Source: a virus (Duplodnaviria; Caudoviricetes). Taken from it: 64,000 bases of DNA. Where the stretch lies: the IMG/VR virus record IMGVR_UViG_3300022876_000002. One strand, 5' to 3'. The position numbers were made by a program, and so were the translations under genes. The notes under the pieces are model-generated. The model had not been told where the DNA came from and did no database searches. It saw only the letters and a program-made list of their open reading frames with translations. The number at the start of each line of letters is the position of its first letter. Position 1 is the stretch's first letter. Of this stretch, positions 15,362 through 45,298 are shown piece by piece.

Positions 15362-15811
15362 TTACTTGTTGTAGCGGTTTACCAGCATTTGCAGTTTACG
15401 CAGACGCTCTTTACCTGCCTTGCGGGCTTTCCAGACCGCAGTATTATTAGTGCGGCAGTACCAATCAATCCACTTGGGATTGAGACCAAAGGTGGTTTCG
15501 CCACGGATTTCGGGTTCGGGGTCGTGGCCAAGACGGGCTTTGAGGATATCATCAAAAGGCGAACTGTGGATCTCCTCGTTTGTCATTGAACCAATACGGT
15601 CTACACTTGCTTGCAGTTCTTCTTCAGAGTAACATTTAGGTTCTCTGATTTTCTTGCTTACCAGCTCTCGTAATTCTGGGTTACTATATTGCTTTAGAAC
15701 TTCTTCTACTTCAGGTGTTAAAGGTCCGCCTCGTTCAAAGTCTTCAGCACCATATGGAACTGTTCTTGGACTAACCGGTTTGTCACTATGCTTGGCCATG
15801 TGATCTTTCAT
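15362..15811 (-). CDS. hypothetical protein with C-terminal WxxW module
   Basis: GLNPKWIDWYCRTNNTAVWKARKAG. Confidence 0.75.
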   Translation of the reverse strand: MKDHMAKHSDKPVSPRTVPYGAEDFERGGPLTPEVEEVLKQYSNPELRELVSKKIREPKCYSEEELQASVDRIGSMTNEEIHSSPFDDILKARLGHDPEPEIRGETTFGLNPKWIDWYCRTNNTAVWKARKAGKERLRKLQMLVNRYNK

Positions 15812-15821
15812 TACGATTACC

Positions 15822-16127
15822 TCAGTTAATATGACGCAACGCATTACGAGAATTGAAGAAGTAGTCAGCCATTCGGTTTACCCCGAGTACAGCTAATCCT
15901 TCATCAATACGAATGCCGTTGAATGGGTTACCAGGATCTTTGTTATTCAGCAAATGGTAGCCGCGGTTAATGGCAATAACACGCGGTACTCCAGTCTGAC
16001 GCTGGTGCCACTCTACCCAATCATTGGAGAGTATCTGTCGATCATGTTTGGTGAGAGGAGGTTCCATATCAGCAGACTGTTTGAGACGCGCCATGGTCCG
16101 CACCATGTTGATGCCCAACGTACTCAT
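15822..16127 (-). CDS. hypothetical protein with WxxW module
   Basis: ILSNDWVEWHQRQTGVPRVIAINRG. Confidence 0.7.
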   Translation of the reverse strand: MSTLGINMVRTMARLKQSADMEPPLTKHDRQILSNDWVEWHQRQTGVPRVIAINRGYHLLNNKDPGNPFNGIRIDEGLAVLGVNRMADYFFNSRNALRHIN

Positions 16128-16444
16128 TTATCGTTACCCAGGTACTTGATATCAACCGCACCGATGCGTGCACGGGAAATATCCGGATCGCGTGACATGA
16201 GTGCCGGAGAGATCGCATACGACTGCCCATCTACCGTAACCCAGTTGTTCTCGATATACACACCACAGAGAGCCCAGAAGCTTTTGACCATCTTGCGTAC
16301 GCCGCCGGTCAGGTTGTCGATAGCCAGGATAACTTTAGCACGCTCGGCTTCAGACGCCTGTGCCCAGAAAGCCATGGTGTAACGCTCCAAGGCTTCTTTA
16401 CCTTCGACGTCAGCCAGCCCGCAAATGTATTCTTCAAACGTCAT
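16124..16444 (-). CDS. hypothetical protein
   Basis: start MTFEE just after the 16447 stop. Confidence 0.7.
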   Translation of the reverse strand: MTFEEYICGLADVEGKEALERYTMAFWAQASEAERAKVILAIDNLTGGVRKMVKSFWALCGVYIENNWVTVDGQSYAISPALMSRDPDISRARIGAVDIKYLGNDK

Positions 16445-16446
16445 TA

Positions 16447-16755
16447 TTACCACCACATTGTTCTATGTTCTTTAGGGATTTCGGCACCTTCTGCTTTTGC
16501 CTTTATGCGCGCTTTACACGTACTTAAAGCAATATTGGAAGACACCTTTTTACGCAAGCGATACCACTTCTGCCAAACTGGGCTAGGTTTACCAGACTCA
16601 GTGGTCAGTTCCGGTTCAGGCAAGTTCTGTACACGTTCATTGAAATCTTTGTGCGCGTCCAGGTAAGTAGAACCCTTGGTCTCCATACACCACTTAGTCC
16701 AAGGGCCTTGGTTGAGTTCACCACGTTTGGTGATAAGTGGGGGTTCTTTGGCCAT
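16447..16755 (-). CDS. hypothetical protein with WxxW module
   Basis: LNQGPWTKWCMETKGSTYLDAHKDF. Confidence 0.7.
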   Translation of the reverse strand: MAKEPPLITKRGELNQGPWTKWCMETKGSTYLDAHKDFNERVQNLPEPELTTESGKPSPVWQKWYRLRKKVSSNIALSTCKARIKAKAEGAEIPKEHRTMWW

Positions 16756-17517
16756 TTATTTGCCCCAGGTAGTAAACGGGTTGGACAGGTCCAATGGGAT
16801 AGCTTTGTCGCTATCGGGGCGTTCTTTGTCACGCTGGATCTCGAAGTAGCCGCTCGGAACATCACCCTTGCTGAAAACTACTACAGGGTCGTCTTCTGGG
16901 ACTCGACCGTTATCGTCAATGGGACGACCGTCAGCGGTATGAGTAATACCTTCCAACAGTTTCTGCCTGCGGCGACCTTCTACTGTTACTGCCAGACGCT
17001 TGAACGTTGGCTGGTTAAAGATAACCACGTCATGCTTCGGTCCATCCATGACTTTAACGTCCATGCCTTTGAAGTGTCCAAAGTTAGGCATTGGAGCAAT
17101 GTCACGCAAGCTACGACCAACGAAGCACGGCGGTGTATGGTTAGTCGGAATATGCCAGGTCCCAGGGAAAACAAACGCGTTGAACAAAGGGCCAGAGATA
17201 TAATTCTCCATAACCCCGACAAATGCTTTCTTTGATGTAGCCAGCTCGTCAAAGACGAGTCTGTAAACTGTGTTACGTACACCACCGTCGCGCAGCACCA
17301 GGCTGGTCAAGTGGTCGTGGAACGGATCGAAAGGAGGAACAACGAACCCGTCCTTGTGCAATGCGCGGTGATGGGTGATCTCTGGCATTGCTTCGCGCAA
17401 CTGACCCAAGAAGCTGAAAGGGCTGTCCACAGGATACCCTTCGTTGTCGATAGTTACGGTGTGTATTACCGGAGCCGCTACCTGAGCTTTAATGAAATCT
17501 TCGAATTCTTTGCTCAT
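16756..17517 (-). CDS. hypothetical protein, first gene after early promoter
   Basis: 253 aa. Confidence 0.8.
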   Translation of the reverse strand: MSKEFEDFIKAQVAAPVIHTVTIDNEGYPVDSPFSFLGQLREAMPEITHHRALHKDGFVVPPFDPFHDHLTSLVLRDGGVRNTVYRLVFDELATSKKAFVGVMENYISGPLFNAFVFPGTWHIPTNHTPPCFVGRSLRDIAPMPNFGHFKGMDVKVMDGPKHDVVIFNQPTFKRLAVTVEGRRRQKLLEGITHTADGRPIDDNGRVPEDDPVVVFSKGDVPSGYFEIQRDKERPDSDKAIPLDLSNPFTTWGK

Positions 17518-17566
17518 TACCTAGTACCTCGTACAGTTGATCAGTATTAAAAACATTGTTACATGC

Positions 17567-17585
17567 ATACACTCGAGTAATGTAG
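17567..17585 (-). promoter_or_regulatory. early promoter-like motif CTACATTACT-CGAGTGTAT
   Basis: upstream of the 17517 start. Confidence 0.7.
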
Positions 17586-17654
17586 GTTTGTTTTATTACA
17601 AGAGTTAAAAACGTGCAGGGCTTACTAAATAGGGTAACTGGTTAAATAAAATTC

Positions 17655-17658
17655 TATG
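17655..17658 (+). promoter_or_regulatory. possible late promoter TATG after an AT-rich stretch
   Basis: phiKZ nvRNAP late promoters use TATG at the start site; a 4-mer is weak evidence. Confidence 0.25.
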
Positions 17659-17678
17659 ACTTCTCGAAGGTAACTATT

Positions 17679-23167: not shown

Positions 23168-23170
23168 AGA

Positions 23171-24530: not shown

Positions 24531-24540
24531 ACCTAAACCC

Positions 24541-25722: not shown

Positions 25723-25738
25723 CCCCTTAGTTAAAGTA

Positions 25739-25766: not shown

Positions 25767-25793
25767 ATTTACGTATTATTGCTAGGGGAGTAC

Positions 25794-26201
25794 TTATTTA
25801 CCACGCAGTTCTTTCAGCCTGCGCATACCCTCAGCCTGGGTCTCACGCAACGAATGACCCTTACCGTGATTGCGGTACCAGTCAATCCACTCACGGTTCA
25901 GACCGCAAGACATACCGCCTTGCAGTGGCGGTTCCTTACGTTCCACTTCAAGCAGTGCGCCAGCGGTTTTATACCATTGGTCACTAGGGCCTTGGTCGGT
26001 AGAGGCAGGATCGATAAAACTGTCGCACTCAGCAGCTTTTACTGGCGGGTTGCGGAACAGAGACTTACCCTCTTTGTCCACAGTGTTGCAAGAAGCATCC
26101 ACCATGTACATCGGTTCCTTTACACCGTCTACTACAACACGGTAAACCACCTTACCCTCGTGACTACGTCCAAGGGCATCAACACGAGCATTCTTATCCA
26201 T
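25794..26201 (-). CDS. hypothetical protein with C-terminal WxxW module
   Basis: GLNREWIDWYRNHGKGHSLRETQAEG. Confidence 0.75.
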   Translation of the reverse strand: MDKNARVDALGRSHEGKVVYRVVVDGVKEPMYMVDASCNTVDKEGKSLFRNPPVKAAECDSFIDPASTDQGPSDQWYKTAGALLEVERKEPPLQGGMSCGLNREWIDWYRNHGKGHSLRETQAEGMRRLKELRGK

Positions 26202-27631: not shown

Positions 27632-28098
27632 TCTTTTGCTCCCAGGGCAACCGCATACGCATGTGCCTCTTCTGGCGTCATACCGTCGTTGTAACAGATG
27701 AACAACAACCAGTCCAAGGCAACATACCCGTCGGCAGTAACGTTGCTCTTAGGAGGCTTGTAGAAGTCAGGAGGGGCTATGCCGAGATCTCTACGAATAC
27801 CTTCCTGAATAGCCACCCCGCTAGCACGAATGGCAACCGCCATTGGGCTATTAGTAAACTTACTAACCCGTGGATCGATTTCACGACGACCGATAGGAAT
27901 ACCGTCAGGACCCAAGATTACCCGAGTGTTCAGGAACTCGTTGATAGCATCGAAAGCTTTACGACCTTTTGCTACCTGCACTCCTACTAATGCATTTGCA
28001 GCAAACTGCACCCAGACTTCATTAACGACACCGTTGTCTTTGGTAAACAACGAGGGCTCGTTAACGCTGGGCTTGTACAAACCAAGATCATTACTCAT
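27628..28098 (-). CDS. hypothetical protein with two degenerate WxxW-type modules
   Basis: VVNEVWVQF..., YVALDWLLFICYNDGMTPEEA. Confidence 0.75.
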   Translation of the reverse strand: MSNDLGLYKPSVNEPSLFTKDNGVVNEVWVQFAANALVGVQVAKGRKAFDAINEFLNTRVILGPDGIPIGRREIDPRVSKFTNSPMAVAIRASGVAIQEGIRRDLGIAPPDFYKPPKSNVTADGYVALDWLLFICYNDGMTPEEAHAYAVALGAKE

Positions 28099-28502
28099 AT
28101 CAGATTGTCATCCCTTACAAAGGCGGTTACCCGTTTAGCATCAGTGGAAGGCCATTCGTGAGTGCCTTTCCAGCGAGCTGAGTTATACGTACAGTTTTCT
28201 TTGTTAGCGTACCACACCATCCAAGCCAGACTGAGACTTTTACCCAAGATGGTACATACCACCTTTTCTGGCTCAGGATAATCAATTACTCGGCGCGGTT
28301 CTTTAAGCAATTTATCAACTACTAACATACCAGCCGCTTGAGCCACAGCAATGGTGGCTCGTGGGTTCTTACGGATATACCACAGCATCCAAGCAGAACT
28401 TACCGGATAACGGTGGCTACCGGTGAAAACGCAAGGCTCGTCATTTGCAGGTTGGTATACATCGGATGCACCCAAGCGGTCGTTGACTTTGTCCTTACTC
28501 AT
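28095..28502 (-). CDS. hypothetical protein with two WxxW modules
   Basis: PVSSAWMLWYIRKN..., SLSLAWMVWYANKEN. Confidence 0.75.
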   Translation of the reverse strand: MSKDKVNDRLGASDVYQPANDEPCVFTGSHRYPVSSAWMLWYIRKNPRATIAVAQAAGMLVVDKLLKEPRRVIDYPEPEKVVCTILGKSLSLAWMVWYANKENCTYNSARWKGTHEWPSTDAKRVTAFVRDDNLI

Positions 28503-30340: not shown

Positions 30341-31153
30341 TTATCCTTTCATATACTTGTTAATTGCTTCTTGTAGCCCGGTCGGTTTGCGAGTGAGTAC
30401 TACACGACCCGTTATAGAACGCAAGTCGACTTCGATTTCAATGGCGTAAGCATCAAACAATTCTGGCGTAAGTAGTGAGTTCTGCAACTCATGCATTACT
30501 GACGTGGCGATGGTAGACCGCACAAAACACTCTGCCTGGTTAGCCATACGCTTGGTAATCCAATCCATCCAGCTGGGATTGATAACCAAAATGGTGTTCT
30601 CTGGATTGAAGGCTGAGAACATGTGTGGTTCGTCAATCAAGAACCCATGCTGTGTAAGCAGGTGGTTGGCTTCATAAACCGTGTTGTACACACGCTCGAA
30701 CAAACGGGAGTTAAATGGACCTACTTGCGGCACAGCAAGCAAGTGCAGGAGTCCACACAAGGAGTCCAGTTCTTTTTTGGAGCTACCTATTACACCACCG
30801 CGCTGTTCAATACCCTTAGCCCAGTCATCAACTGCTTTGCCATAGGCTACATGTCGCGCCATTTTGCCTTCGGACCCATCTGGATTAGGGCCGAATGCTT
30901 CTGTATAAGTGTGGAGTTGGCGCATGGTCTCAATAACTGTCTTGATGGTATCGGCAGCAAGTGGCTCAGTAATTACCGCATGCAGTTCAAGAAACAGAAG
31001 TCCTATCTGATGAACTTGTTCTGGCAACGATACCTGGTGGTGCAAGAACGTTCCATGATTTGTAATCCAACGCATGACAACTGCTTCGAACTTGTTGGAC
31101 ACACTCAGTTGGTTGGTAGCTCGCGAGTACTCACCATCACCTGCTTCAAGCAT
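30341..31153 (-). CDS. hypothetical protein with WxxW module
   Basis: VINPSWMDWITKR. Confidence 0.8.
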   Translation of the reverse strand: MLEAGDGEYSRATNQLSVSNKFEAVVMRWITNHGTFLHHQVSLPEQVHQIGLLFLELHAVITEPLAADTIKTVIETMRQLHTYTEAFGPNPDGSEGKMARHVAYGKAVDDWAKGIEQRGGVIGSSKKELDSLCGLLHLLAVPQVGPFNSRLFERVYNTVYEANHLLTQHGFLIDEPHMFSAFNPENTILVINPSWMDWITKRMANQAECFVRSTIATSVMHELQNSLLTPELFDAYAIEIEVDLRSITGRVVLTRKPTGLQEAINKYMKG

Positions 31154-31394
31154 CTTCTAACGCTCCACTGAAAGTCACAGTTGCCTTGCCGTCACGGCTA
31201 ACGGTAGCGGTGACACCTGGCTTGGCTTTGATGAATGCCGGGGCACGTTCAGCCACTACGTCCAGGATAGGGTCGATCCCTTCAAATGCCTGAGACTCGT
31301 GCAGAACATACCAGCCAATCCAATCACGCGAAACAATCCACCCCATGTTAGGTGTCTTACGTAGCAGGGCTGGTTCTTTCTTGTGCTTTCCCAT
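31146..31394 (-). CDS. small protein consisting largely of the WxxW module
   Basis: IVSRDWIGWYVLH. Confidence 0.7.
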   Translation of the reverse strand: MGKHKKEPALLRKTPNMGWIVSRDWIGWYVLHESQAFEGIDPILDVVAERAPAFIKAKPGVTATVSRDGKATVTFSGALEDA

Positions 31395-32778: not shown

Positions 32779-33396
32779 TTAGTAAAGTGACACGTGGTCA
32801 ACAGACTTGACAAAGGTAACTTCGAACGGGTTGTGTATACCAGGAATTGGTGTAAATACGGTCAGGTCTTGGGCGTAGTCTTTGGCAATTTTGGCCGCCG
32901 CTACCTTCCAGGCTTCTTGACGGCTTACACTGTGACGGTGGGTATACCAGTCAATCCACTCGCGGTTGATCACCGCACCGGAATGGTTGTCATCGTGGTA
33001 GACTTTGGGTTCTTCTGGACCATCGTTCTCGATTTTCCAGAGAGCCTTAACCAGTTTGTCCACTACGGTAATAACCGGCAGGCGGTTACCTTCAGCGTCT
33101 TTGGTGGCTATAGCCAGTACACCAGGAGTAATACGTGGCGCTGCCATACGTTTAACTACTTCTTGACGGATGAGGGGTTCCACGTCCTTGTAGAAGAACC
33201 GATAAACGGTCGCGCCGTCGGTAACGATACCGATGTTCAGTTCACCGGTGGAGGCCTCAGGGAAACGTACCAACAGCCATTCAGTGAACTGCCGGTCGTT
33301 CATTTTCTGCAAGAGGTTGAGCGCCAGCTCTTGGGCCTGGCGCAGGTTGTCACCTTCCAATTCAACCAGGAAATTCTTGCTCACACGTGTAGCCAT
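32779..33396 (-). CDS. hypothetical protein with WxxW module
   Basis: VINREWIDWYTHRHSVSRQEAWKVA. Confidence 0.8.
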   Translation of the reverse strand: MATRVSKNFLVELEGDNLRQAQELALNLLQKMNDRQFTEWLLVRFPEASTGELNIGIVTDGATVYRFFYKDVEPLIRQEVVKRMAAPRITPGVLAIATKDAEGNRLPVITVVDKLVKALWKIENDGPEEPKVYHDDNHSGAVINREWIDWYTHRHSVSRQEAWKVAAAKIAKDYAQDLTVFTPIPGIHNPFEVTFVKSVDHVSLY

Positions 33397-33410: not shown

Positions 33411-34304
33411 TTAGAGCGCTTCGGTAATGCGCACTTTAGTTACTTGATGCATGTTGAAGCCAAACGTACCTTTGTAGATGCACAAGCCGTCCACATGAAT
33501 GGTCGACGCATCCCAACCTTTGGCTTTAGCCAGGTCTTCGGCAATGCGATGTGTAGCAGCTGTGACCAGTCCCAGAATACTGGAAGAGGTCTTGTCACGT
33601 TGACGCACTAGCAACCAGACTAAATACGTAGGGTTAACGAAATACTCACCATCCACCTGCAACCCTTTAACCGGTGGCATGTCAACCAACCCTGACCCCC
33701 TGTACCAGGCACATAACACATCAGTAAACTGGTTCAGCAGCCCAATAATCAACTCGCCGGTAACTTCGTAAACGGGGCTATCTACTGACAGTTTAGCACC
33801 TTTATCCAAGTCACTCAGACTGAACACTACGTTACCGACCTGTTTAGAAAAGAAACTACATTGGAACTTTTCTTTGTCGATACGTACCAAGAAGTTACCT
33901 AGGTCATACTCAGTAAGGTTATCTACATGATGACTGTACACACCCAGGGCGATGTGGTACATGACAATCTCGTAAATATCGCCCTGGTACGACTTCATAC
34001 TGAACGTCGATCGTTTGGGTTGTGACAACCAATGCAGGAAGATAGAGTCCAGCGCACCGATTACCCAGTTGCGGTCACATTGGGTTCCCCATTGTTCATC
34101 CGGCCACATCAACTGACCAGATGCACCAACACTAACTGCCTTGATTCCATTTACCCAGAAAGAATATTCGTTGAGTGCACTGTAGTGGTACTCGGACAGT
34201 TTAAGACAAACACTACCGTCTTGGCTGTAGATACCGCCATCTTGGGCATACACACCCATTTTGCCAAGTACCGAGAACTTTTCAGCTAAAGCTTTATCAG
34301 ACAT
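33411..34304 (-). CDS. hypothetical protein, ~300-aa tandem triplet member
   Basis: 297 aa; FVNPTYLVW module near C-terminus. Confidence 0.8.
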   Translation of the reverse strand: MSDKALAEKFSVLGKMGVYAQDGGIYSQDGSVCLKLSEYHYSALNEYSFWVNGIKAVSVGASGQLMWPDEQWGTQCDRNWVIGALDSIFLHWLSQPKRSTFSMKSYQGDIYEIVMYHIALGVYSHHVDNLTEYDLGNFLVRIDKEKFQCSFFSKQVGNVVFSLSDLDKGAKLSVDSPVYEVTGELIIGLLNQFTDVLCAWYRGSGLVDMPPVKGLQVDGEYFVNPTYLVWLLVRQRDKTSSSILGLVTAATHRIAEDLAKAKGWDASTIHVDGLCIYKGTFGFNMHQVTKVRITEAL

Positions 34305-34313
34305 GGCTGCTCC

Positions 34314-35297
34314 TTAATAGCAGATAACTTCTTCCTTAATCTCGACAATTTCGAACTGTCGCGACTCCAAGTTCTTGATACGAGCTTCGTACCGACTACC
34401 CTCTGGAGCAGGACGCCGCTTCTCCAACTGATGTAAAGCGCGTTTGACACCATCTACAGTCAGCTGCTCCAACGTACTAGGTCGGCCTTTGGCGTCGTTC
34501 AGCTCACTCCACATAATCCAGGCTGGGGTAACAAACCGCTGATTACCAGCTACCATGTAAGTAACTGGTGGCTCTTTATCCAAACGGCCAGAGTCATGCC
34601 AATGCTCACGTACATGGTTATAGAAACTAGACATGACACAAGTCATGATCCTGGTGTCTATTTTGTTAGAGTACTGTGTACTGACGTGTTTAATACCATC
34701 GGACACCACGCAGTAATCAAACAAGTGCTCATCCAGGTGTTCGCCTGGCAGGCGCAGGTACACAGAGAACATTCCGTTCTTCTGATCTACCTTGATGAAG
34801 AAGAAACCCAAGTCCCAATCTACCTGAGTCAGGAAGTTGCTGAAAATACCAACCCCTTGCAACCATCTGCCTAGCTCGTGCATATCGCCGTGCGTGTGCT
34901 CGATGCGGAAACCTTTACCGCCCTCACGCACAACCATGTTGCGCCACTCACCGCCAGTTTTGTCAGTGCGTAACCAATCGAGGAAAAACTCTTGCAAGAT
35001 GCTGGAGAGCTTATCGATACCGTACAGTTCTTCTGCTGCTGGAGTAGGCCAGTTAAAGAAGTCAGTGGCCTTAGACCAGCAAGCCAGTTGCATCCCATTA
35101 ACAGTCAGTGCAAACCTGACACCGTAAGCATCCACCCGGTCATTCCAGGAGAGTATAGTAGTCTGGTCCTTGCTCACCAACTGTTGCTTGAAATGGAATA
35201 AACCGTAACGTACGTAACTAGCCATTTGCATGAAAAAGTCGTGACGTTTCTTGTCACGACGGTCTAGCGCATCCCTTACTTTACCCATGCCCGGCAC
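34314..35297 (-). CDS. hypothetical protein, ~300-aa tandem triplet member
   Basis: 327 aa; FVTPAWIMW; ends IVEIKEEVICY. Confidence 0.8.
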   Translation of the reverse strand: MPGMGKVRDALDRRDKKRHDFFMQMASYVRYGLFHFKQQLVSKDQTTILSWNDRVDAYGVRFALTVNGMQLACWSKATDFFNWPTPAAEELYGIDKLSSILQEFFLDWLRTDKTGGEWRNMVVREGGKGFRIEHTHGDMHELGRWLQGVGIFSNFLTQVDWDLGFFFIKVDQKNGMFSVYLRLPGEHLDEHLFDYCVVSDGIKHVSTQYSNKIDTRIMTCVMSSFYNHVREHWHDSGRLDKEPPVTYMVAGNQRFVTPAWIMWSELNDAKGRPSTLEQLTVDGVKRALHQLEKRRPAPEGSRYEARIKNLESRQFEIVEIKEEVICY

Positions 35298-35300
35298 TCC

Positions 35301-36242
35301 TTAGTAAACTACGGTTTCCTTGATCTCGATGATCTGGAACGATAACGCGTACATATCTAGGAAACGTACACGGTAGATGTTACTTGGCAAGTTGGACTCT
35401 TCTGCCAAATTACCAGCAATTGTAGCTACTGCTTTCTTGAAAGCAGTGGTACCAGACCAGTGGGCTTCAATATGACTGGGGTCACCACCGAAGATCTGCC
35501 ACGCCAGCCACAGGGAATTAATGGCACGGACGCCGGTGAAATCAGTAACCCATTCCCACTGTTGTGGTTCTTTGGCAATCAACCCGCTAGTTAGCAGGAA
35601 GTCGCGGTAGTGTTTGGTAAGGCGGACAAAGATTCCCAATACCACGGCAGGTGTAAGCGAAGCATCCAGCATGCGGAAGTCAAAGATGTCTTCCGGGCGT
35701 TCTGAATTCAGAGTAACCTGGATTACTTCTTTTGCGAGGTTGGTATTGACAACGCTGATTGCTACACCATCACCATCTTTCAAAGACACTTCAAACACAT
35801 CAAAACGCCACGTACGTTTGAGGTGAGTCAAGAAACCAGTCTGTAACAGCGTGCTAAGTACCTCTGGCACGCGATTGGTGAAATCCTTACCAACCATCTT
35901 GGTGGTGATAGACGAATAGATTTCTTGTAGTTCTTCTTTGTCCGAGTTGATGTACCGAACGCAGATAGCACGCAAAATTCCATCCAACTCCTTGATGGGA
36001 TAAACCGCCTTGATCTCTTCGCGACCAAAGTAGTTAAAGGAGTGGTCCATACCAGAGTAGTAACCAATGTTCAGGTTCTCTACGAACAACCCAATGTTAG
36101 GCTGTGTCCTGGAACCAAAGCTGTCAGGACTTACCTGGATATAAGTACCTTCCTGACCGCTATCAAACTTACTGCCTGGGTCGAACTCCGCACCATAAGT
36201 GCGCATTTTCGAGACCTGCTTGGCAAAAAAATTATTATCCAT
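35301..36242 (-). CDS. hypothetical protein, ~300-aa tandem triplet member
   Basis: 313 aa; AINSLWLAW; ends IIEIKETVVY. Confidence 0.8.
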   Translation of the reverse strand: MDNNFFAKQVSKMRTYGAEFDPGSKFDSGQEGTYIQVSPDSFGSRTQPNIGLFVENLNIGYYSGMDHSFNYFGREEIKAVYPIKELDGILRAICVRYINSDKEELQEIYSSITTKMVGKDFTNRVPEVLSTLLQTGFLTHLKRTWRFDVFEVSLKDGDGVAISVVNTNLAKEVIQVTLNSERPEDIFDFRMLDASLTPAVVLGIFVRLTKHYRDFLLTSGLIAKEPQQWEWVTDFTGVRAINSLWLAWQIFGGDPSHIEAHWSGTTAFKKAVATIAGNLAEESNLPSNIYRVRFLDMYALSFQIIEIKETVVY

Positions 36243-36558: not shown

Positions 36559-36560
36559 TG

Positions 36561-36860
36561 TTACTCCTTGATTACCGGCACCAGCGGGATCGGACTGTAG
36601 AAGTCCTTGGTAGGTTTGTAATCTTTAACGAAAGCAGCACACTCAGCCAGCAGGTTAGCATCACTGCCATCAATCATGTCGGCGGTATGCTTAGCCTCGT
36701 TGATGAAGTCACGCATCGACTTGCTAAGGTGCTCCAGAGCTACTTCCATGGTGAGCTCGTGCTGGGCCATGTACTCGGCCAGCCATACCTTGTTTACTTC
36801 CGGGGTTTCTACGTTCGTGAACATCCATGGACGACGAAAAGACATCGATGAGTTAGGCAT
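36561..36860 (-). CDS. hypothetical protein with degenerate WxxW module
   Basis: EVNKVWLAEYMAQHELTMEVA. Confidence 0.7.
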   Translation of the reverse strand: MPNSSMSFRRPWMFTNVETPEVNKVWLAEYMAQHELTMEVALEHLSKSMRDFINEAKHTADMIDGSDANLLAECAAFVKDYKPTKDFYSPIPLVPVIKE

Positions 36861-37524: not shown

Positions 37525-37526
37525 TA

Positions 37527-38198
37527 CTATTCACTCTTTAGGGAGTCCATAAACTCCCGTAGGTTATTGGGTTCAGTAGGATCTTTGTCGATACTGGAGA
37601 AATACTCGATCATACTGATATCAAACAAGCTCATTGCCCGGCGACGTTTCCGATACTCGATTTCGGCATCGGTAGGGTCGACATTGTGTACGGTTTGGTA
37701 ACGCTTGATCCAAGCTTTCCTGCTATTAAGGTCAGGATGCACTAACTCGCCTTCAAAATAGCGATCCATTTGATCTACTACTACTTGCGTAGCTTGGAGC
37801 TCTGACATACCTCGTTCTTCCATGACCCGGTCAATACGCTCGAACAACAAATCGAGATGGTTAGGTAGCCTGAACGGTTTACGGTTAGGCCAACCAGCGA
37901 TACAGATTTTCAGGTTGGTCAGTGCTTGATCGTAGTCAAAACAACGTGGCGGTTCGAGCAAGCGCACGCGGTCAGCTGCAATAGACGCATGCACCCAACC
38001 ACGTAATTGCTGGATACGGACTTCATAACCGAGGCCTGGCATGTAGCCGATTTCCACAGCGATGTTATCAACTACAACTTTGGTACGACGCCAAGCACCG
38101 TTTGTGTCTTCTTCTTTAGCCAGATCAATCAGATCTAAACACAGACCCTTAACTACGTTAGCCTGTTCTACATTCAAAGCTTTTGTATCTTTCAACAT
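37527..38198 (-). CDS. hypothetical protein with degenerate WxxW module
   Basis: LNSRKAWIKRYQTVHNVDPTDA. Confidence 0.8.
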   Translation of the reverse strand: MLKDTKALNVEQANVVKGLCLDLIDLAKEEDTNGAWRRTKVVVDNIAVEIGYMPGLGYEVRIQQLRGWVHASIAADRVRLLEPPRCFDYDQALTNLKICIAGWPNRKPFRLPNHLDLLFERIDRVMEERGMSELQATQVVVDQMDRYFEGELVHPDLNSRKAWIKRYQTVHNVDPTDAEIEYRKRRRAMSLFDISMIEYFSSIDKDPTEPNNLREFMDSLKSE

Positions 38199-38200
38199 GT

Positions 38201-38422
38201 TCAGTCCTTAGCTACACTGCAAGTAACAGTGAGTTTAGTGGTACTGTTCGCGGCCTTCATGCTGGAATTACTCCAGCTCTTTATATAAGAGTTAAGACCG
38301 TAACTTTTTACTATCTGTTCCATGAGTGGTTTACACTCAGTCCCGTACACGATATTCGACTGAGGTGGACTACCCACCATGGTCAGTACCGCAATAGCAA
38401 TAGCTTTCATGTGCACCACCAT
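38201..38422 (-). CDS. small hypothetical protein (hydrophobic N-terminus, Cys pair)
   Basis: 73 aa. Confidence 0.6.
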   Translation of the reverse strand: MVVHMKAIAIAVLTMVGSPPQSNIVYGTECKPLMEQIVKSYGLNSYIKSWSNSSMKAANSTTKLTVTCSVAKD

Positions 38423-38442
38423 AATGCAAAAAGAAAAAGGTA

Positions 38443-38476
38443 ACTACCTACTAGAGCCTGAGCCCTAGTAGGTAGT
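38443..38476. terminator. hairpin actacctactag/ctagtaggtagt
   Basis: 9 nt after the stop of 38486..39844. Confidence 0.75.
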
Positions 38477-38485
38477 AGTTGAGGT

Positions 38486-39844
38486 TTAGCCAGCCATCAG
38501 CGCAGCCAGGCCAGTGAGCATGCCACCGGACTCGTGCACTGGTTCGGTACGCTGGGTGATGACCTGAGCGGGGATGGTCGCTACCACAGTGGAGTCGGAT
38601 TGCTCTACCATGGTTTCGTCATCGTCGCTCAGTGCACGGCCGATGTTTCGGCCGATACGTGCACCACCAACGCCCATGATGCCGCCGAGTGCACCAGCAG
38701 CGAAGTCGCGCAGGTGTGGGTTCTCGATGGAGTCTTCCAGCAGGCCACCGGCGTAGAACGCACCGCCAGTTGCAATGGCAGCACCAGCGATAGCCGATAC
38801 GTCGAAGCCGTTCATGGCCATGTCGACAGTACCGCCGATCACAGCGCCAGCGGCTGCAGTCCAGCGTGGGTTGACACCGTTGGAGTTCTCACGCACGAAA
38901 GCGTAAGTGTCGTCGCCGGTCTCCACCGACTCGGCCTCGGTGTAGGCGAAGTTGGCGAACTCGATCGACACCCGCAGGTTTTCTTCCGACAACAGGAGGA
39001 ACATCGCCATGATGTGGTCTGGTTTGTCCAGGACCTTGCTGGCGCGCTTGTTGAACTTCTTGAAGGCCTTGGCGCGGTCTTCATCGCCATTGACCCAGGA
39101 CTCGAACACGGTGGCGCGCTTGTCAGCATCTTTCATGCCCGGCAGTTCCTTGATCGCGTTGACCATGAACTTGATTGTCGGGCGCATGAAAGCGTAGATG
39201 ACGTTGATGCCGAACTGGTCGATCGAGTCCATGGCGAAAGCCAGCTTGACGTGACGGTCAGCTTTCTTGACCTTGCCCTTGGCGTGGGCGTCGACGAAGG
39301 CCTTGGCGAAACGCTTGGATTCGGCTTTGGCCAGGTCGGCTTCTTCGGTTGCCACTTCGACGCGCTTGTCTTTCTTGGCCTTGTCTTTCTTGCCAGGCTT
39401 TTCAGCGCGCTGGGTCATGGTGTTACCTTGCTCGGTGATCTGAGCGTTGGCGTTGGATTCTTGGGCTTGGGACTGTTGGGCGTTGGTTTGCATTTCGGTG
39501 GTTCCTTGCTGGGCGGTGTCGGCGGTGTGGGTGTGGGAGATCAGTGCGGAGTCAGCTGGGATTTCGGTAGACCCGATTACTTTATCCGTACGGACCAGAA
39601 CTGCTTTCTCTGGCAGTTCGAATGGGAGGGTTTTCAGAATGACCGGATTACCCTTCTTGATACCAGTGAGCGAGTACTTGGTGTCGAGCTTGTTGTTGAT
39701 CAAGACCAGCAACTCGTGGCGGTCTTGTTTGGCAACGTAATGCTCATCCATGATGTACTCTTTCAGGATGGCCGGAATTGCGTTGTTGACACTGTGCTGG
39801 ATAGCGAGTTCAACAGCAGCAATGATAGTTTCGAACTGATGCAT
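38486..39844 (-). CDS. hypothetical protein with C-terminal glycine-zipper-like hydrophobic region; GC-rich
   Basis: 452 aa; AAAGAVIGG..., AIAGAAIATGG..., AAGALGGIMGVGG. Confidence 0.85.
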   Translation of the reverse strand: MHQFETIIAAVELAIQHSVNNAIPAILKEYIMDEHYVAKQDRHELLVLINNKLDTKYSLTGIKKGNPVILKTLPFELPEKAVLVRTDKVIGSTEIPADSALISHTHTADTAQQGTTEMQTNAQQSQAQESNANAQITEQGNTMTQRAEKPGKKDKAKKDKRVEVATEEADLAKAESKRFAKAFVDAHAKGKVKKADRHVKLAFAMDSIDQFGINVIYAFMRPTIKFMVNAIKELPGMKDADKRATVFESWVNGDEDRAKAFKKFNKRASKVLDKPDHIMAMFLLLSEENLRVSIEFANFAYTEAESVETGDDTYAFVRENSNGVNPRWTAAAGAVIGGTVDMAMNGFDVSAIAGAAIATGGAFYAGGLLEDSIENPHLRDFAAGALGGIMGVGGARIGRNIGRALSDDDETMVEQSDSTVVATIPAQVITQRTEPVHESGGMLTGLAALMAG

Positions 39845-39887
39845 AACAAACTCCTAGACTATTAAAGAGTACAAAACTCTTGTTCCT

Positions 39888-39906
39888 ATACACCCAAGTA
39901 ATACAG
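39888..39906 (-). promoter_or_regulatory. early promoter-like motif CTGTATTACT-TGGGTGTAT
   Basis: upstream of the 39844 start. Confidence 0.7.
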
Positions 39907-39948
39907 GTTTATAATAGCCTAGAAGTTAAATTAACCGCCCATAAGTAA

Positions 39949-40389
39949 TTACTTATCTTTCTTAATACCGAACGACATATCCCCGAAATACAGCTCACGC
40001 CCCATCCAGGTAGCAAACACTTGGTCTAATGCCAAGTGGTCGTGTGGGGACAGTTTGTAGCCCAGCGACATATGGAACATGGGGGTACCATATGAATGCT
40101 CGTAACCTGCTTCTTTGAGCAGGCGGAATTCTTCGAGCATTTGTGGGGACGTAAGGTGGAATACGTAAGCATCCCCCAGCACACCCATACTGATGATCTT
40201 AGCTGTAAACTCTTTGCTGCTGTCCAGCAAACAGAAAGGTTCAGCCAATTCACGTTCGTCGTACATCATGGTAACGTGCAGATCGTGTTTGTCACTAGGA
40301 GCACAACCAGCCTCCATGATCGCAGCGAACACGTCTTCTACCAGGTTGTCTCGCAGTGCTACGTTGATATAGCTAAAATCCAATTCCAT
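39949..40389 (-). CDS. 2H phosphoesterase, anti-CBASS Acb1 (T4 57B)-like
   Basis: 146 aa; H38-V-T40 and H106-M-S108 catalytic motifs, spacing 68. Confidence 0.75.
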   Translation of the reverse strand: MELDFSYINVALRDNLVEDVFAAIMEAGCAPSDKHDLHVTMMYDERELAEPFCLLDSSKEFTAKIISMGVLGDAYVFHLTSPQMLEEFRLLKEAGYEHSYGTPMFHMSLGYKLSPHDHLALDQVFATWMGRELYFGDMSFGIKKDK

Positions 40390-40394
40390 TTCCT

Positions 40395-40604
40395 TTACTC
40401 CTTGGCCTTGCTACGGACACTTATCTGTGTAATACAGGAGCCCTTTTTAATCTTTTTTACAAGACGCTCACATGCAGCGACTCTTAACGTACGACTGCAT
40501 TGCTCCTTGTTAGGAATCTCTTGATGGTAGTAGGAATGCTTTATGTAATCAGCACCACCATTCTCACCAATTTTAGCTAGTGGAAGATCCATACACAACT
40601 CCAA
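40395..40604 (-). CDS. small basic hypothetical protein
   Basis: 69 aa. Confidence 0.55.
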   Translation of the reverse strand: MELCMDLPLAKIGENGGADYIKHSYYHQEIPNKEQCSRTLRVAACERLVKKIKKGSCITQISVRSKAKE

Positions 40605-40621
40605 AAAATAAAGTAAGGTAC

Positions 40622-40647
40622 GGCTCTTACCCCTAGGGGTAAGAGCC
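40622..40647. repeat. perfect 26-bp palindrome centred on CTAG (terminator-like)
   Basis: ggctcttacccct|aggggtaagagcc. Confidence 0.85.
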
Positions 40648-40654
40648 TATACGA

Positions 40655-41119
40655 TCACTTGGGCTGGTCATTAGTAAGGTAAGTTACTTGTGGCCTTGTT
40701 GGCATTATTGGCTCGGGTGGACTGGACTCCGAGATAAACCCTGTGTCCTTACGAGCACGTGTGACACCAGGTCCGTGAGCAACTCTACCCCAACTACTAG
40801 TAATGATGCTGTCAAGCCCTTTGGCGACGATAAACTGTTGCCTGGCGCTTTCTGCAAAGCCCAACCAGATGGATGCATCGATATCTGGTAGACGTGGGTC
40901 ATATACATTAGGACCAAACACCAAGACTGGCTCAGCCGATACCTCGAAGTCATACAAACAAGCATTTACTTCGGTGTGATCCCAGACCTTAGCAAATACC
41001 AAATGACATCGACTGGGTAACTGCGTAGTGCGGATACGCATGTTACCATTGGCCAAAAAGTCCGTAACTAGTTCTTGGCCAATATCCATTACCTTTTTAA
41101 TGCAAGAACCTTCATTCAT
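40655..41119 (-). CDS. hypothetical protein
   Basis: 154 aa. Confidence 0.75.
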   Translation of the reverse strand: MNEGSCIKKVMDIGQELVTDFLANGNMRIRTTQLPSRCHLVFAKVWDHTEVNACLYDFEVSAEPVLVFGPNVYDPRLPDIDASIWLGFAESARQQFIVAKGLDSIITSSWGRVAHGPGVTRARKDTGFISESSPPEPIMPTRPQVTYLTNDQPK

Positions 41120-41583
41120 TTCGTTGGCCTTTTGACTGGAGGTTTATTCCAAGCAGTAAGCGCGCGCAGGATGGACTCGTACTGTTCCAAGTACAGACCT
41201 TTACCACGGCTACCAAAGATCAAACCTTCTTTACCACATGCAGTGAACGGCTCCAGGCACTTACCAGCATTGAACCGTTTACCTTTGATATGGTAGTTGC
41301 GAGTAATGATAAACGCGTACGACGGCTTCTGAACCGTGGTTACCTGGAAGGTGAACTTATCTGGCAGCCCAGGGGACTCGAAGTAATGGCGACCACCACG
41401 GATCTCCACATTGAAGCACTGGAGCTCTTTAGCCTCTGGAGCAAAGTATCCCAGAGTAGCCAAACGTTCCCAAGCTTTAATGCGGAGTGTCTCCAGTTCA
41501 GCAGCAACCATCTCACTGTCACGTGGGCCACCAACGTTGAATGCATCAAAGCTGAAATTATTCTTGGTGAAAGTCCAGCTCAT
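41116..41583 (-). CDS. hypothetical protein
   Basis: 155 aa. Confidence 0.75.
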   Translation of the reverse strand: MSWTFTKNNFSFDAFNVGGPRDSEMVAAELETLRIKAWERLATLGYFAPEAKELQCFNVEIRGGRHYFESPGLPDKFTFQVTTVQKPSYAFIITRNYHIKGKRFNAGKCLEPFTACGKEGLIFGSRGKGLYLEQYESILRALTAWNKPPVKRPTK

Positions 41584-42575
41584 CAGTTAACCCCTTCTGC
41601 ATACCGTGGAGCTTGTATCCAGTCTTTACCTATTTTAACCGGACGAGTAGATGACAGGTGTGCGTGTGAGTGGTAGAACTGTTCGTCATCCATGGGGATT
41701 CGGAAAGCAGCGCTGTTAGGATGACCGCCGCCACCGAAGCGCTTGGCGATCTCACCTACATCTACACCCGTACCTTTCTTACTGCGCAGAGAGTACTGGC
41801 GCCCGTCACGACCGTCGGTGTAAGTCATGGAGAACGGTTCGTCAATTGCCAGCAACGCACCCAGCTCATTACGGAACAGCGAGTTAGCATTGACGACCGG
41901 TACGTCGTACTCGTCAATAATGAAGCGGCGAGCTTGCTTAGACAGACCTTTAACGGTCTTGTCGATATGACGCTGGATGGCACGACCTTCTTGCACCACT
42001 TCTTCAATAGAGACTTGCATTACCCGATTGAAGTTTTCTACATTCAGTTCGTGGCTAAATGCAGCGGCAGACCAGTGCTTGGTCTCTGGGTATGCGAAGC
42101 GCCACAAATCGTAGTCTTCGGCCAGCGCAATACCCTTAGGCGGTTCGGCACCTGGGTTGAACCACATCCAGGCCAGCATAGCACCGGAATGGCGGTCATC
42201 TACCACTACCACCGGTACACCGAAATCGTCTTTAACCAGGTCCCATTGTTCATAAGCTCGTGGCCAAGAACGCCATGCAATGGGTTCCAGTGCTTTCCAG
42301 GCAGTAGCGTGGTGATCCAGTACCAAGAGCTTGCTTACTGCACCCAGGGCTTTGGTTTCCGCCAGGTTGAAAGCAAAGTCCACACAGATGACCGACTTAC
42401 CAGTCAGCAGGTTCCAGTTCTCCCCGAACATATCGGCAAAATTGTCACCGTACTGCACCGGTACTAAACTTACGTTGCCTTCGTAGGCTTTCCATACCAC
42501 CCATGCCGAGGCTAGGCCGTCCAGGCAGTTTTTGTGGTACAACACTACTACGTCATGTTGTAAATCAATGGCCAC
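41583..42575 (-). CDS. DHH/DHHA1-family phosphoesterase
   Basis: YHKNCLDG, VDF, LDHH, SGAMLAW, DYDLW, SLRS, GGGGHPNSAAF. Confidence 0.9.
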   Translation of the reverse strand: MAIDLQHDVVVLYHKNCLDGLASAWVVWKAYEGNVSLVPVQYGDNFADMFGENWNLLTGKSVICVDFAFNLAETKALGAVSKLLVLDHHATAWKALEPIAWRSWPRAYEQWDLVKDDFGVPVVVVDDRHSGAMLAWMWFNPGAEPPKGIALAEDYDLWRFAYPETKHWSAAAFSHELNVENFNRVMQVSIEEVVQEGRAIQRHIDKTVKGLSKQARRFIIDEYDVPVVNANSLFRNELGALLAIDEPFSMTYTDGRDGRQYSLRSKKGTGVDVGEIAKRFGGGGHPNSAAFRIPMDDEQFYHSHAHLSSTRPVKIGKDWIQAPRYAEGVN

Positions 42576-42585
42576 AATAAAGTCC

Positions 42586-42822
42586 TTATTCGTTATCCCG
42601 AATGATCTTTTCCTGGCGCTTAATCTCTAACCTAGCGTCAGCTTTTATTTGTTGTCGCACACGGCAATCGAAGTTGTTGTGCAGGCCTTCACAACGGGCT
42701 TTATTAGAGGCTTCTCGCCAACTGTTAAACCCTTTGTACATCCCAAACAAACAAAATACGATAATTATAAATAGTGCGATTATAAACCAGCCTGGAGGGT
42801 CGTCATCATCCCAATGAGGCAT
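42586..42822 (-). CDS. single-TM protein with variant CxGxHxNxxC loop
   Basis: RCEGLHNNFDC after the TM. Confidence 0.75.
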   Translation of the reverse strand: MPHWDDDDPPGWFIIALFIIIVFCLFGMYKGFNSWREASNKARCEGLHNNFDCRVRQQIKADARLEIKRQEKIIRDNE

Positions 42823-42832
42823 AACCCCATCC

Positions 42833-43075
42833 TCACTCTTTATGTTCTAGGTTTTTGACACCAATAGACACAATGGTGCCGCGAGATCGCTTGATACGCT
42901 TGTAAGCACGAAGAGCAGCAGTTCGAATGCCAGTGCGCTCTTCATTGGTGTCGCCACTAACCGTTTGCAGGTGGTGACGTTTGGCAAAGAACAGGAATTC
43001 TGGCTTTACCTTGTAGTTCATTGTCTCGGCAACTACACGACGACGAAACTTGCTTAATGGGTAACGGTTTTCCAT
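42833..43075 (-). CDS. small basic hypothetical protein
   Basis: 80 aa; C-terminus resembles 43381..43542. Confidence 0.7.
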   Translation of the reverse strand: MENRYPLSKFRRRVVAETMNYKVKPEFLFFAKRHHLQTVSGDTNEERTGIRTAALRAYKRIKRSRGTIVSIGVKNLEHKE

Positions 43076-43078
43076 AAC

Positions 43079-43378
43079 TCAGCCCTTAATAAAGAATTCG
43101 GTTTTCTCTACCACGCGAGTCGCGATATACGCGCCGGTCTCGTTAGCTTCATCGTGATAAGCGTTTTCTTCGTACACGTGCTCGACCTTGGTGATGAAAC
43201 CATTCTCGACGTATACGTAAAACTCATTCTTATCGGGCTGCGGCACAGTGATGCGCACTGGACGAGCACCTACGACACCCAGCACATGCTCCAAAGCAAA
43301 AGTGTTGATAACTTGGGATTGCTCGGCACCTTTCTCGATGAAACGCCACTCGTTATTGTGCTTGTAGAAACGATACAT
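43079..43378 (-). CDS. hypothetical protein
   Basis: 99 aa. Confidence 0.75.
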   Translation of the reverse strand: MYRFYKHNNEWRFIEKGAEQSQVINTFALEHVLGVVGARPVRITVPQPDKNEFYVYVENGFITKVEHVYEENAYHDEANETGAYIATRVVEKTEFFIKG

Positions 43379-43380
43379 GA

Positions 43381-43542
43381 TTAGTCCTTGAGCTTATAAC
43401 GAGGGTTCTTGACCTGGACGCGGACAATGGTGTCGCCCTTGACACACTTCTTACCCAGGCGACGAGCAGCTTCATCAGCCCCCGGAATACCGATGTAGCT
43501 GAAGGTGTACTCGTCAATTTCCATCAGGTACTTACTTTCCAT
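43381..43542 (-). CDS. 53-aa protein absent from the ORF track (MESKYLMEIDEYTFSYIGIPGADEAARRLGKKCVKGDTIVRVQVKNPRYKLKD)
   Basis: fills the gap exactly; TAATG overlap with the upstream stop. Confidence 0.7.
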   Translation of the reverse strand: MESKYLMEIDEYTFSYIGIPGADEAARRLGKKCVKGDTIVRVQVKNPRYKLKD

Positions 43543-43901
43543 TATTTCATCCCATCCATAGTAGTTGCCATACGTAGCGTTTTGATGACCAGGTCGTCGA
43601 TAAGGGTGAGCTGTTCTACTACAGCAGGTTTAGTGCCATGTAGTCCCAGGATACCTACTTCATCGACAGTGTAAATTGGTGAGCGCTCATGGGATTCCGA
43701 GTCGTAGATATAAAGCGCACCTACGAAAGACTCGGGTACCAGTGCAGTACTGCTTGCTGTCCGCGTAGGCCCCCGGCGGACAGTACGTTTGAACAGGACG
43801 GTGTAACGTCCTTCCCCTATGGTGTAAAAGCGTTGTGGCTTGCGCAGGGCACTTAATTTCTTAAGCGCCTCCGGCAGTTTATTATCGTTATGTTTCATCA
43901 T
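43542..43901 (-). CDS. hypothetical protein
   Basis: probable start MMKHND. Confidence 0.7.
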   Translation of the reverse strand: MMKHNDNKLPEALKKLSALRKPQRFYTIGEGRYTVLFKRTVRRGPTRTASSTALVPESFVGALYIYDSESHERSPIYTVDEVGILGLHGTKPAVVEQLTLIDDLVIKTLRMATTMDGMK

Positions 43902-43911
43902 CAATCCTTGA

Positions 43912-44247
43912 TTAGATGTGCTTGGGCACAAACCGGATTTTGTGGAGGGTTTCGGTGGTAGCTACCAAAGAGGTAACGTACTCACCGGTGTAATGGATTA
44001 CGTCAATGACCACAATTACTTCGGATTCTTTACCCAAATAGGCATTGATCAACTGCGGGCTTTTGACGAGTTTGTCGTAGTAGACCTGGGCGTGGCGGGT
44101 AGCGTCTTCCGTGCGGTTAAACAGGCTAGCCGCGGCCATATCAACAGCCAAGTCGATATGGGGATGTTTACGGAAGTCCAGGTAACGTTCTTGGTGCGGT
44201 TTATTCAGTGTTGTACTGCGCACACGAAGGAAGGAGAACTGCGGCAT
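43912..44247 (-). CDS. hypothetical protein
   Basis: 111 aa. Confidence 0.7.
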   Translation of the reverse strand: MPQFSFLRVRSTTLNKPHQERYLDFRKHPHIDLAVDMAAASLFNRTEDATRHAQVYYDKLVKSPQLINAYLGKESEVIVVIDVIHYTGEYVTSLVATTETLHKIRFVPKHI

Positions 44248-44249
44248 AC

Positions 44250-44597
44250 TTACCCCTTAATGATCATCTCGTTCATGGAGGCTTTCACGATATCGATAAG
44301 TTCCTCGATATCCTGGAGCTCGCTACGCTTGACATAAACTTCAATGCCGGTGTCGGACTTACGGATGTAGCAGATTGGACTGAACGCACGCTTGTAGTCG
44401 TAGATCAATACCATCGGCAACAAGCCAGTGCGGTTGTAAACACCCAGTACGTTGTCACGCTCATTGAACACGGTGAACGAATGACGACTGTACACCAACT
44501 CTTTATACAGCTTGTCGATAGAGTGGTAAGCGCTAGGCTCGCAACGACGATCGTTTACGAGCTGTACGTATTCTTCTGCTAGTACCAAATTATTCAT
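44250..44597 (-). CDS. hypothetical protein
   Basis: 115 aa. Confidence 0.7.
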   Translation of the reverse strand: MNNLVLAEEYVQLVNDRRCEPSAYHSIDKLYKELVYSRHSFTVFNERDNVLGVYNRTGLLPMVLIYDYKRAFSPICYIRKSDTGIEVYVKRSELQDIEELIDIVKASMNEMIIKG

Positions 44598-45298
44598 CGA
44601 TCATACTCCTCCACCGGTGTCCCGAATACATCGAGGCAACGGAAAATACCAAAGGCTTCTTTAGTCTCTGCTACCAAACGAACTGCTTCGGTAGTAGCAT
44701 CTTTAAGTGTCAGGTGACGGTAAGGTGCACGGTTAAACAGCGCTACACCGTTCTTACCCACTTTACCGATTACGTAGCGACCCAGGATATTGTTGTGGAT
44801 ATCCTTGAAGGTAGCCGATTTGGTCTGAGTCAGTTTAAAGTGGTACAGGAAGAACCCAACCCACTTGTCCTGTACCCGCTGGTTAATGTAGTTACCGTCA
44901 GCGTCTCTGGCCAAGTCCTCCTTATTGAGGGTTGGCTCTATCTCAAAGATCAGGATCTCGAATTCTTCACGAACCGAAGACCGGCGATTATCTGGATTAG
45001 CGACATGCAGACGAGCTGGGGTTTCAGTTTTAGCTTTCTTGGTTACGTTTTTGATCGGGATCAACATAACGTAGGGGTCACCAACGTTATCCGGTGGGTA
45101 GACAATTGGATCACGATCGTAGTCACGGTTATCACCGATACGTACCATCAACTGGTCAAACGCTTCGGTAATAGCCTGATGGATAGCATCGTCACCACCG
45201 CCTAGCGCAGCAGCCCGGGTATTAATCCATTCCGGAGAAATGCAACGTTGCGAGTATGACTCTTTGTGAATGAAATCGAATTGCGGGTTATCGGACAT
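44594..45298 (-). CDS. mosaic hypothetical protein (WxxW-like module plus two small modules)
   Basis: CISPEWINTRAAALGG; REEFE...RDADGNY...VQDKW; H..LKDATTEAVRL. Confidence 0.75.
   Translation of the reverse strand: MSDNPQFDFIHKESYSQRCISPEWINTRAAALGGGDDAIHQAITEAFDQLMVRIGDNRDYDRDPIVYPPDNVGDPYVMLIPIKNVTKKAKTETPARLHVANPDNRRSSVREEFEILIFEIEPTLNKEDLARDADGNYINQRVQDKWVGFFLYHFKLTQTKSATFKDIHNNILGRYVIGKVGKNGVALFNRAPYRHLTLKDATTEAVRLVAETKEAFGIFRCLDVFGTPVEEYDR

Follow-up and report, generated by a model that had tools for sequence, protein, structure and literature searches.

A portable tryptophan-rich mini-domain shared by otherwise dissimilar proteins of an EL-like jumbo phage

We examined a 64,000-nucleotide stretch of viral DNA (IMG/VR record IMGVR_UViG_3300022876_000002; hereafter the window), in which an original prediction, made from the letters alone, had noticed a Trp-rich module of ~35 amino acids (aa) grafted onto about 15 unrelated proteins. 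The present analysis indicates that this module is a genuine mini-domain of ~45-50 residues, larger than first described, and that it represents a new domain family without a relative in Pfam, PHROGs, the PDB or the AlphaFold DB. We count ~15 copies spread over 12 genes, or perhaps 17 over 14, all on the minus strand. To simplify the nomenclature, genes are named by their lower coordinate, for example 15362. A near-identity search of the phage and IMG/VR collections did not recover the window. By sequence, its source is a jumbo phage and a distant relative of Pseudomonas phage EL: its 998-aa virion protein is 39% identical to EL ORF116, and its gene order is that of EL at 133-157 kb (ligase, RNase H, DHH phosphoesterase, many small genes, acetyltransferases, and Kelch).

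Signature, membership and predicted fold

The signature of the module reads E-P-x-h, a short beta-hairpin, h-[NS]-x-x-W-h-x-W-Y in helix 1 (h, hydrophobic; x, any residue), a turn of 3-4 residues, and a second helix that often starts with [ST]-x-x-E-A. W-x-x-W was found at each site first listed as strong, and Glu-Pro lies 12-19 residues upstream of it in all strong copies. Because Glu-Pro was absent from the first description, it provides independent confirmation. The second helix, which that description placed 8-12 residues after the Trp motif, is predicted to begin 3-4 residues after helix 1.

A short motif might recur by chance, or as a side effect of repeated DNA, and brevity is what speaks for such an explanation. 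The controls refute it, and we give it practically no credence. First, the pattern E-P-x(11-18)-W-x-x-W has 12 matches in 10 window proteins versus 0.11 expected (at most 2 in 300 shuffles), a ~100-fold excess; the 10 are the very genes first listed as strong. Second, unsupervised BLASTP links 15362, 25794, 32779, 31146, 15822, 28095, 30341, and 16447 through the module region only. Third, leave-one-out hidden Markov models (HMMs) recovered 15362, 25794, 28095, 31146, and 32779 at 14.5-21.6 bits, versus 6.6-12.6 bits for the best of 4,650 shuffled proteins; in this small test, 30341 was marginal and 15822 failed. Both were clear passes with an HMM built from database representatives, which found 10 copies in 8 proteins at 21-71 bits, where the best of 50 shuffled proteomes reached 4.8. 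Fourth, in a MAFFT alignment of 37 copies from the window and its relatives, Pro is invariant and Glu and both Trp are conserved in >=90%. The residues conserved family-wide are of core type only (E, P, W, W, Y, and hydrophobics). They are encoded by different codons from copy to copy, hence conservation acts on the protein and not on repeated DNA. Conservation in orthologues and the recovery of database relatives, described below, also speak against chance.

On sequence grounds, 10 copies in eight genes are secure (15362, 15822, two in 16447, 25794, two in 28095, 30341, 31146, and 32779), while the copies in 27628 (two), 33411, 34314, and 35301 are probable, degenerate members. Two of the weaker candidates, 36561 and 37527, are marginal, at the edge of significance, and a third, 44594, is unsupported at 0.2 bits with the representative HMM. 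No further copy was seen in any frame of the window, and none outside 15.3-36.2 kb; the real span therefore runs from 15362 to 36242, perhaps to 38198, and not to 45298 as had been proposed. The count of about 15 holds for copies, but the carriers are not all unrelated: BLASTP aligns 33411, 34314, and 35301 as paralogues over their full length, and 27628 and 28095 seem to be paralogues as well.

We modelled two subfamilies with AlphaFold2. In 16447 (20-row alignment; predicted local distance difference test score [pLDDT] 84.4), the same unit appears twice: a beta-bridge pair, the W-x-x-W helix, a three-residue turn, and a second helix. In 32779, where overall pLDDT is 68.6, the module reaches 81-87, with strands at residues 133-136 and 140-143 and helices at 145-155 and 159-173. 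One predicted local fold, a beta-hairpin plus two helices, is thus common to both subfamilies, and the mini-domain probably folds independently. A Foldseek search of BFVD with the 16447 model retrieved only EL ORF133 (E 2e-6, template-modelling score 0.68-0.76) and, weakly, EL ORF084; the 32779 model also found ORF133, at probability 0.97. The expectation that the copies would share a fold was borne out in these two subfamilies. Fold searches of the PDB, AlphaFold DB clusters, ESM Atlas, and VIA-align yielded nothing beyond generic helix pairs (Z <= 4.7). Judging Trp burial from helix geometry, the invariant E, P, W, W, and Y would build a small hydrophobic core, in which W, W, and Y line up along the same side of helix 1, where Pro and the hydrophobic residues of the hairpin can cover them.

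Fold searches with the poorly modelled N-terminal body of 32779 gave nothing useful, and searching ESM Atlas by features gave no usable match for 28095 or for the N-terminal bodies of two further proteins, P0036 and P0027. The 15362-type module folded as two copies (26-row alignment) scored 0.07 against a mark of 0.42, which speaks neither for nor against pairing.

Distribution and portability

To determine how widely the family is distributed, we compared a profile of the module (A2) with 1.84 billion representative proteins and obtained 77 clusters at E<=0.001, of 46-618 aa; all 10 clusters that we examined were unnamed, metagenomic proteins. Among 50,697 phage records, matches fell in Elvirus genomes only, with no module match in phiKZ, OBP, or Joad, and by these searches the module appears restricted to EL-like jumbo phages. 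EL itself has two copies in ORF133 (E 2e-10) and one each in ORF084 and ORF092. All three, among them the uncharacterised proteins Q2Z0U8 and Q2Z0Z7, are true family members, and 16447 is the two-copy orthologue of ORF133 (37% identity by tblastn), but EL holds ~4 copies in 3 genes versus ~15 in 12 in the syntenic region of the window. In a 184-kb IMG/VR relative, nine of nine matches lie within 16 kb, and orthologues of 32779 occur on ~243-kb contigs. The profile search foreseen in the original prediction recovered a family in the window, its relatives, and the databases.

We compared syntenic loci of three related metagenomic phages and found the module kept in each orthologous group. In four of eight families (25794, 27628, 30341, and 32779), it is better conserved than the rest of the protein, while in 28095 and 31146 it is not. 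Among orthologues of 32779, at 47-50% identity, a dense block of invariant residues falls within the module.

The same module occurs on different bodies. Over its last 61 residues, 15362 matches the end of a 280-aa protein (P0017) at 92% identity, the end of a 137-aa protein at 85%, and a 65-aa protein with little beyond the module at 82%. N-terminal bodies of these 15362-type carriers share no similarity, and modules of this type also form whole proteins of 61-65 aa. Copy number varies between orthologues as well: two-copy 28095 corresponds to a 72-aa single-copy protein in two relatives (L003 and L004), and relatives of 25794, up to 434 aa long, have a second copy. Among 76 database representatives, 21 are a single module and 14 a double one, so that 35 consist of one or two modules and little else; 18 carry the module at the C-terminus, 5 at the N-terminus, and 18 in other arrangements. 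Fused bodies in 10 larger relatives had no Pfam match. The early impression of a portable unit, placed at either end or in duplicate, or making up most of a protein as in 31146, was accurate. Taken together, these sequence comparisons show a family that has multiplied through duplication of genes and of modules within genes, has moved by recombination at the module boundary, and is clustered in one accessory region.

We considered whether descent alone could account for the family, i.e., whether the module is an inherited folding nucleus without a shared function, left over from a duplicated ancestral gene and stabilising fast-evolving small proteins. Core-type conservation, the clustering of all copies, and the decay of the module in 33411, 34314, and 35301 would fit. 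A 92%-identical module placed on unrelated bodies by recombination is unexplained by descent alone, however, and in several families the module is the best-conserved part of the protein; we regard this explanation as very unlikely.

Two conserved elements adjoin the module. The two-copy 16447 family has an H-x-x-x-[WY]-W tail (e.g., HRTMWW) after the second module. The N-terminal 45 residues of 25794-26228 form a unit, NARVD-x-x-GR-x-HEGK ... Y-h-VD, which precedes the module and is found again in database relatives that are 109-286 aa long and have one or two modules.

Candidate functions

We favour, with confidence that is no better than even, the reading that the module is itself a binding or effector domain, and not a cargo-less tag, with targets and predicted ligands particular to each paralogue. 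Three features argue for it: the invariants are of core type, helix 2 varies between paralogues, and nearly half of the representatives are module-only, which makes the module the likely working part. Helix 2 is conserved within each orthologous group, and the net charge of the module ranges from -4 to +6. Each paralogue would then have its own macromolecular target, with specificity carried by the variable helix-2 face. Since helix 2 and the tails are rich in Lys and Arg in the 15362 type, and the second copy of 16447 is Lys/Arg-rich too, the likeliest ligand of these basic subfamilies would be nucleic acid or another polyanion; for acidic members such as 31146, it would be a protein. The module region may serve host takeover or counter-defence. 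Two observations weigh against this reading. An invariant Glu would be uncommon if its role were purely structural; it could instead be the sign of a contact common to the copies, which leaves room for a shared partner. Moreover, 33411, 34314, and 35301 carry a decayed module that is conserved no better than the rest of the protein.

A narrower possibility is that the proteins are small sequence-specific DNA- or RNA-binding regulators, similar to helix-turn-helix (HTH) or ribbon-helix-helix (RHH) proteins, that act as tandem copies or dimers to control phage or host transcription. The module is small, with two helices and a G-h-[ST] turn before helix 2; helix 2 and the tails are very basic in the 15362 and 16447 subfamilies, and two-copy proteins are common. 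The resemblance to RHH proteins (Arc/MetJ/CopG) extends to a length of ~45 residues, a strand followed by two helices, and a G-x-[ST]-like turn before helix 2, and tandem two-copy module proteins resemble TraY. Nevertheless, the predicted strands form a hairpin within the module (AlphaFold2 model of 32779) and not an RHH ribbon paired across a dimer or second repeat; helix 1 is shorter; and no RHH chain appeared among the Foldseek or VIA-align rows, where fold searches returned only generic helix pairs (best Z 4.3). Pfam supported no HTH or RHH family for the 37 copies at E<=10: one of 37 had a stray HTH_24 match (E 0.03), and an engrailed HTH fragment at Z 3.7 was within noise. Several members are also neutral or acidic. 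We therefore consider such regulators unlikely.

The statement that no described family has this motif was upheld. Pfam-A and PHROG gave no relevant match at E<=1 for 10 window proteins, no Pfam family recurred among the 37 copies at E<=10, and a sequence search of the PDB gave only chance matches to the antibody framework 'WYRQ'. In the literature we found no relevant description of the motif. Known shared elements of phage proteins differ from it. In T4, a short element shared by otherwise unrelated small proteins targets internal proteins to the capsid; it has ~10 residues, is strictly N-terminal, and is removed by the prohead protease. The module, in contrast, is a folded 50-residue unit found at N-termini, at C-termini, internally, and in tandem, and most of the proteins carry C-terminal, internal, or tandem copies. 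Phage 'polyvalent' or accessory proteins resemble the family in that their modules are shuffled between unrelated bodies in conflict-related regions, and an ART-PolyVal-like gene (weak Pfam match, in orthologues only) lies among the module genes, but no described module matches by sequence. Separately, we rejected Glu-Pro as a prohead-protease site, since the positions ahead of Glu depart from S/A/G-x-E, the rule of phiKZ-like phages, and a Pro following the scissile bond disfavours cleavage.

The original prediction saw in the module an address tag that brings different cargo to one partner, perhaps at the phage nucleus. As an alternative to paralogue-specific binding, the E-P and W-x-x-W-Y surface would dock to a single partner (a shell or import component, phage RNA polymerase, or a host hub) and recruit a dozen bodies. 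Portability, placement at either protein end on unrelated bodies, and invariance of E, P, W, and W across paralogues are consistent with such a tag, and module-only proteins could be its competitors or regulators. However, 35 of 76 representatives have no cargo, and helix 2 and net charge differ widely between paralogues. The ligase, RNase H, and SbcC-like protein of the window have no module copy, and phiKZ, OBP, and Joad lack the module. A single shared partner and a nucleus tag are thus unsupported, and we judge an address tag to be improbable. The PicA import signals of jumbo phages of the phiKZ/EL group are also a recognition element shared by several proteins. For PhiKZ, no conserved motif was found among imported proteins, and a species-specific surface patch was proposed instead of a linear signal (PMC11087766); the module differs in having a conserved motif and in being missing from phiKZ, OBP, Joad, and the replication enzymes of the window. 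With the chimallin of phiKZ (gp054) as a single query we found nothing in EL or the 184-kb relative, a protein so divergent that this result shows nothing about nucleus formation. More specifically, the Glu-Pro/Trp face might be a lineage-specific docking handle that binds a single hub, be it a compartment or import component of the phage or a complex of the host, and recruits a dozen interchangeable effector bodies, with module-only proteins as competitors; this version is distinctly improbable.

Setting and significance of the module region

The individual copies are listed in Table 1. From 13 to 53 kb, nearly all window genes are encoded on the minus strand, and Pfam places an Acb1-like phosphodiesterase, a DHHA1 protein, a metallophosphatase, three GNATs, and a Kelch protein near the module genes. 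As context, these neighbours suggest a host-takeover or counter-defence region.

Table 1. Secure, degenerate, and possible module copies in the window (bits refer to the representative HMM unless stated)
Feature	Gene (length)	Position	Strand	Evidence
C-terminal module, basic helix 2	15362-15844 (160 aa)	15383..15517	-	71.2 bits; leave-one-out 16.4; EP..W..W pattern
Module	15822-16127 (101 aa)	15930..16064	-	30.5 bits; pattern match; small leave-one-out test failed
Copy 1 of two in tandem	16447-16755 (102 aa)	16612..16746	-	30.4 bits; AlphaFold2 beta-bridge pair 8/14, helices 16-27, 31-43
Copy 2, strongly basic	16447-16755	16486..16617	-	60.0 bits; AlphaFold2 helices 59-69, 73-89; EL ORF133 orthologue
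C-terminal module	25794-26228 (144 aa)	25800..25934	-	60.8 bits; leave-one-out 18.0; second copy in relatives
Degenerate N-terminal copy, second Trp changed to Phe	27628-28098 (156 aa)	27925..28059	-	12.9 bits; EP and first Trp kept in orthologues
Degenerate C-terminal copy	27628-28098	27649..27756	-	10.4 bits with an HMM built on second copies in database proteins; 1 of 4,650 shuffled proteins scored as high
Copy 1	28095-28502 (135 aa)	28302..28439	-	38.1 bits; L003/L004 orthologues are 72-aa single-copy proteins
Copy 2	28095-28502	28134..28274	-	26.5 bits; 24.5 with second-copy HMM
Internal module	30341-31153 (270 aa)	30482..30631	-	21.2 bits; identity to orthologues 54-58% in module vs 39-41% in rest
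Module forming most of the gene, acidic helix 2	31146-31394 (82 aa)	31233..31376	-	29.1 bits; leave-one-out 14.5
Module	32779-33396 (205 aa)	32869..33012	-	43.8 bits; invariant block in orthologues; AlphaFold2 hairpin and two helices
Degenerate copy (M-P ... Y-x-x-W)	33411-34304 (297 aa)	33537..33680	-	6.8 bits; full-length paralogue of 34314
Degenerate copy	34314-35297 (327 aa)	34431..34574	-	Pattern match; 6.8 bits
Degenerate copy	35301-36242 (313 aa)	35421..35570	-	Pattern match kept in orthologues; paralogy; missed by representative HMM
Possible copy without hairpin	36561-36917 (118 aa)	36732..36809	-	5.9 bits vs shuffled maximum 4.8; no EP at usual spacing, no second Trp
Possible copy without hairpin	37527-38198 (223 aa)	37629..37736	-	4.9 bits vs shuffled maximum 4.8; no second Trp; L001 orthologue is C-terminal 77 aa only

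Several features of the region were noted alongside. The Acb1-like protein (39949-40389, minus strand, 146 aa) matches the Pfam family of 2H phosphodiesterases directed against the cyclic oligonucleotide-based antiphage signalling system (anti-CBASS) at 28.1 bits, just over the curated cut-off of 27, and is 75% identical in relatives. A 197-aa protein among the module genes (28508-29101, minus strand) has relatives at 76-81% identity; Pfam gives no match for the window protein at E<=0.01, and the ART-PolyVal match of its orthologues is a weak, precomputed one. Six small single-pass membrane proteins (22805-24629 and 42586-42822, minus strand) share a Cys-x-G-x-Y-x-T-x-x-C loop, with pairwise BLASTP links of E 4e-5 to 3e-3, and are conserved in related loci. 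Adjacent genes at 29103-29786 and 29722-30336 are paralogous (34% identity, E 2e-26). A paralogue triplet proposed within 31404-32683 (31404, 31790, and 32231) reduces to a weakly similar 31404/31790 pair (E 0.006), since BLASTP does not link 32231. At 57375-63944, two giant virion proteins are 52% identical over 977 residues.

Several intergenic gaps contain a motif, AAACCTAcATTACT and then GTGTAT, that is similar to a 19-nt 'putative phage promoter' annotated in EL. Sites of this type lie at 17518-17678, 32684-32778, and 39845-39948, where they precede operons, at 50778-50856, and also at 3480-3530 and 12455-12521. Many other intergenic gaps hold GC-rich terminator-like hairpins. In three soil runs, assembly breaks occur on both sides of an 840-bp piece covering gene 37527 (37452-38291), possibly a variable cassette.

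The window region is present in 20 libraries labelled soil metatranscriptomes. For 25001-45000, all sampled words were found in eight libraries labelled soil metatranscriptomic, and most words in a ninth. In four soil runs that we examined, the region lies in contigs as long as 64 kb that come from records as long as 136 kb; these may be DNA. Complete recovery in eight libraries and the long contigs indicate that the phage is abundant in those soil samples.

The family covers about a dozen 'hypothetical' genes within a single accessory region of EL-like jumbo phages and illustrates how that region evolves, by duplication, copy-number change, and body-swapping at a fixed module boundary. Because ORF133, ORF084, and ORF092 belong to a cultivable phage, function is directly testable in Pseudomonas aeruginosa. 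If the copies have a single partner, the module could be put to use as a targeting handle and would hint at the way these phages organise infection; as a docking handle, it would have no described precedent among jumbo phages as a linear, transferable targeting domain. If instead each paralogue has its own target, the family would be a compact library of host-directed binders.

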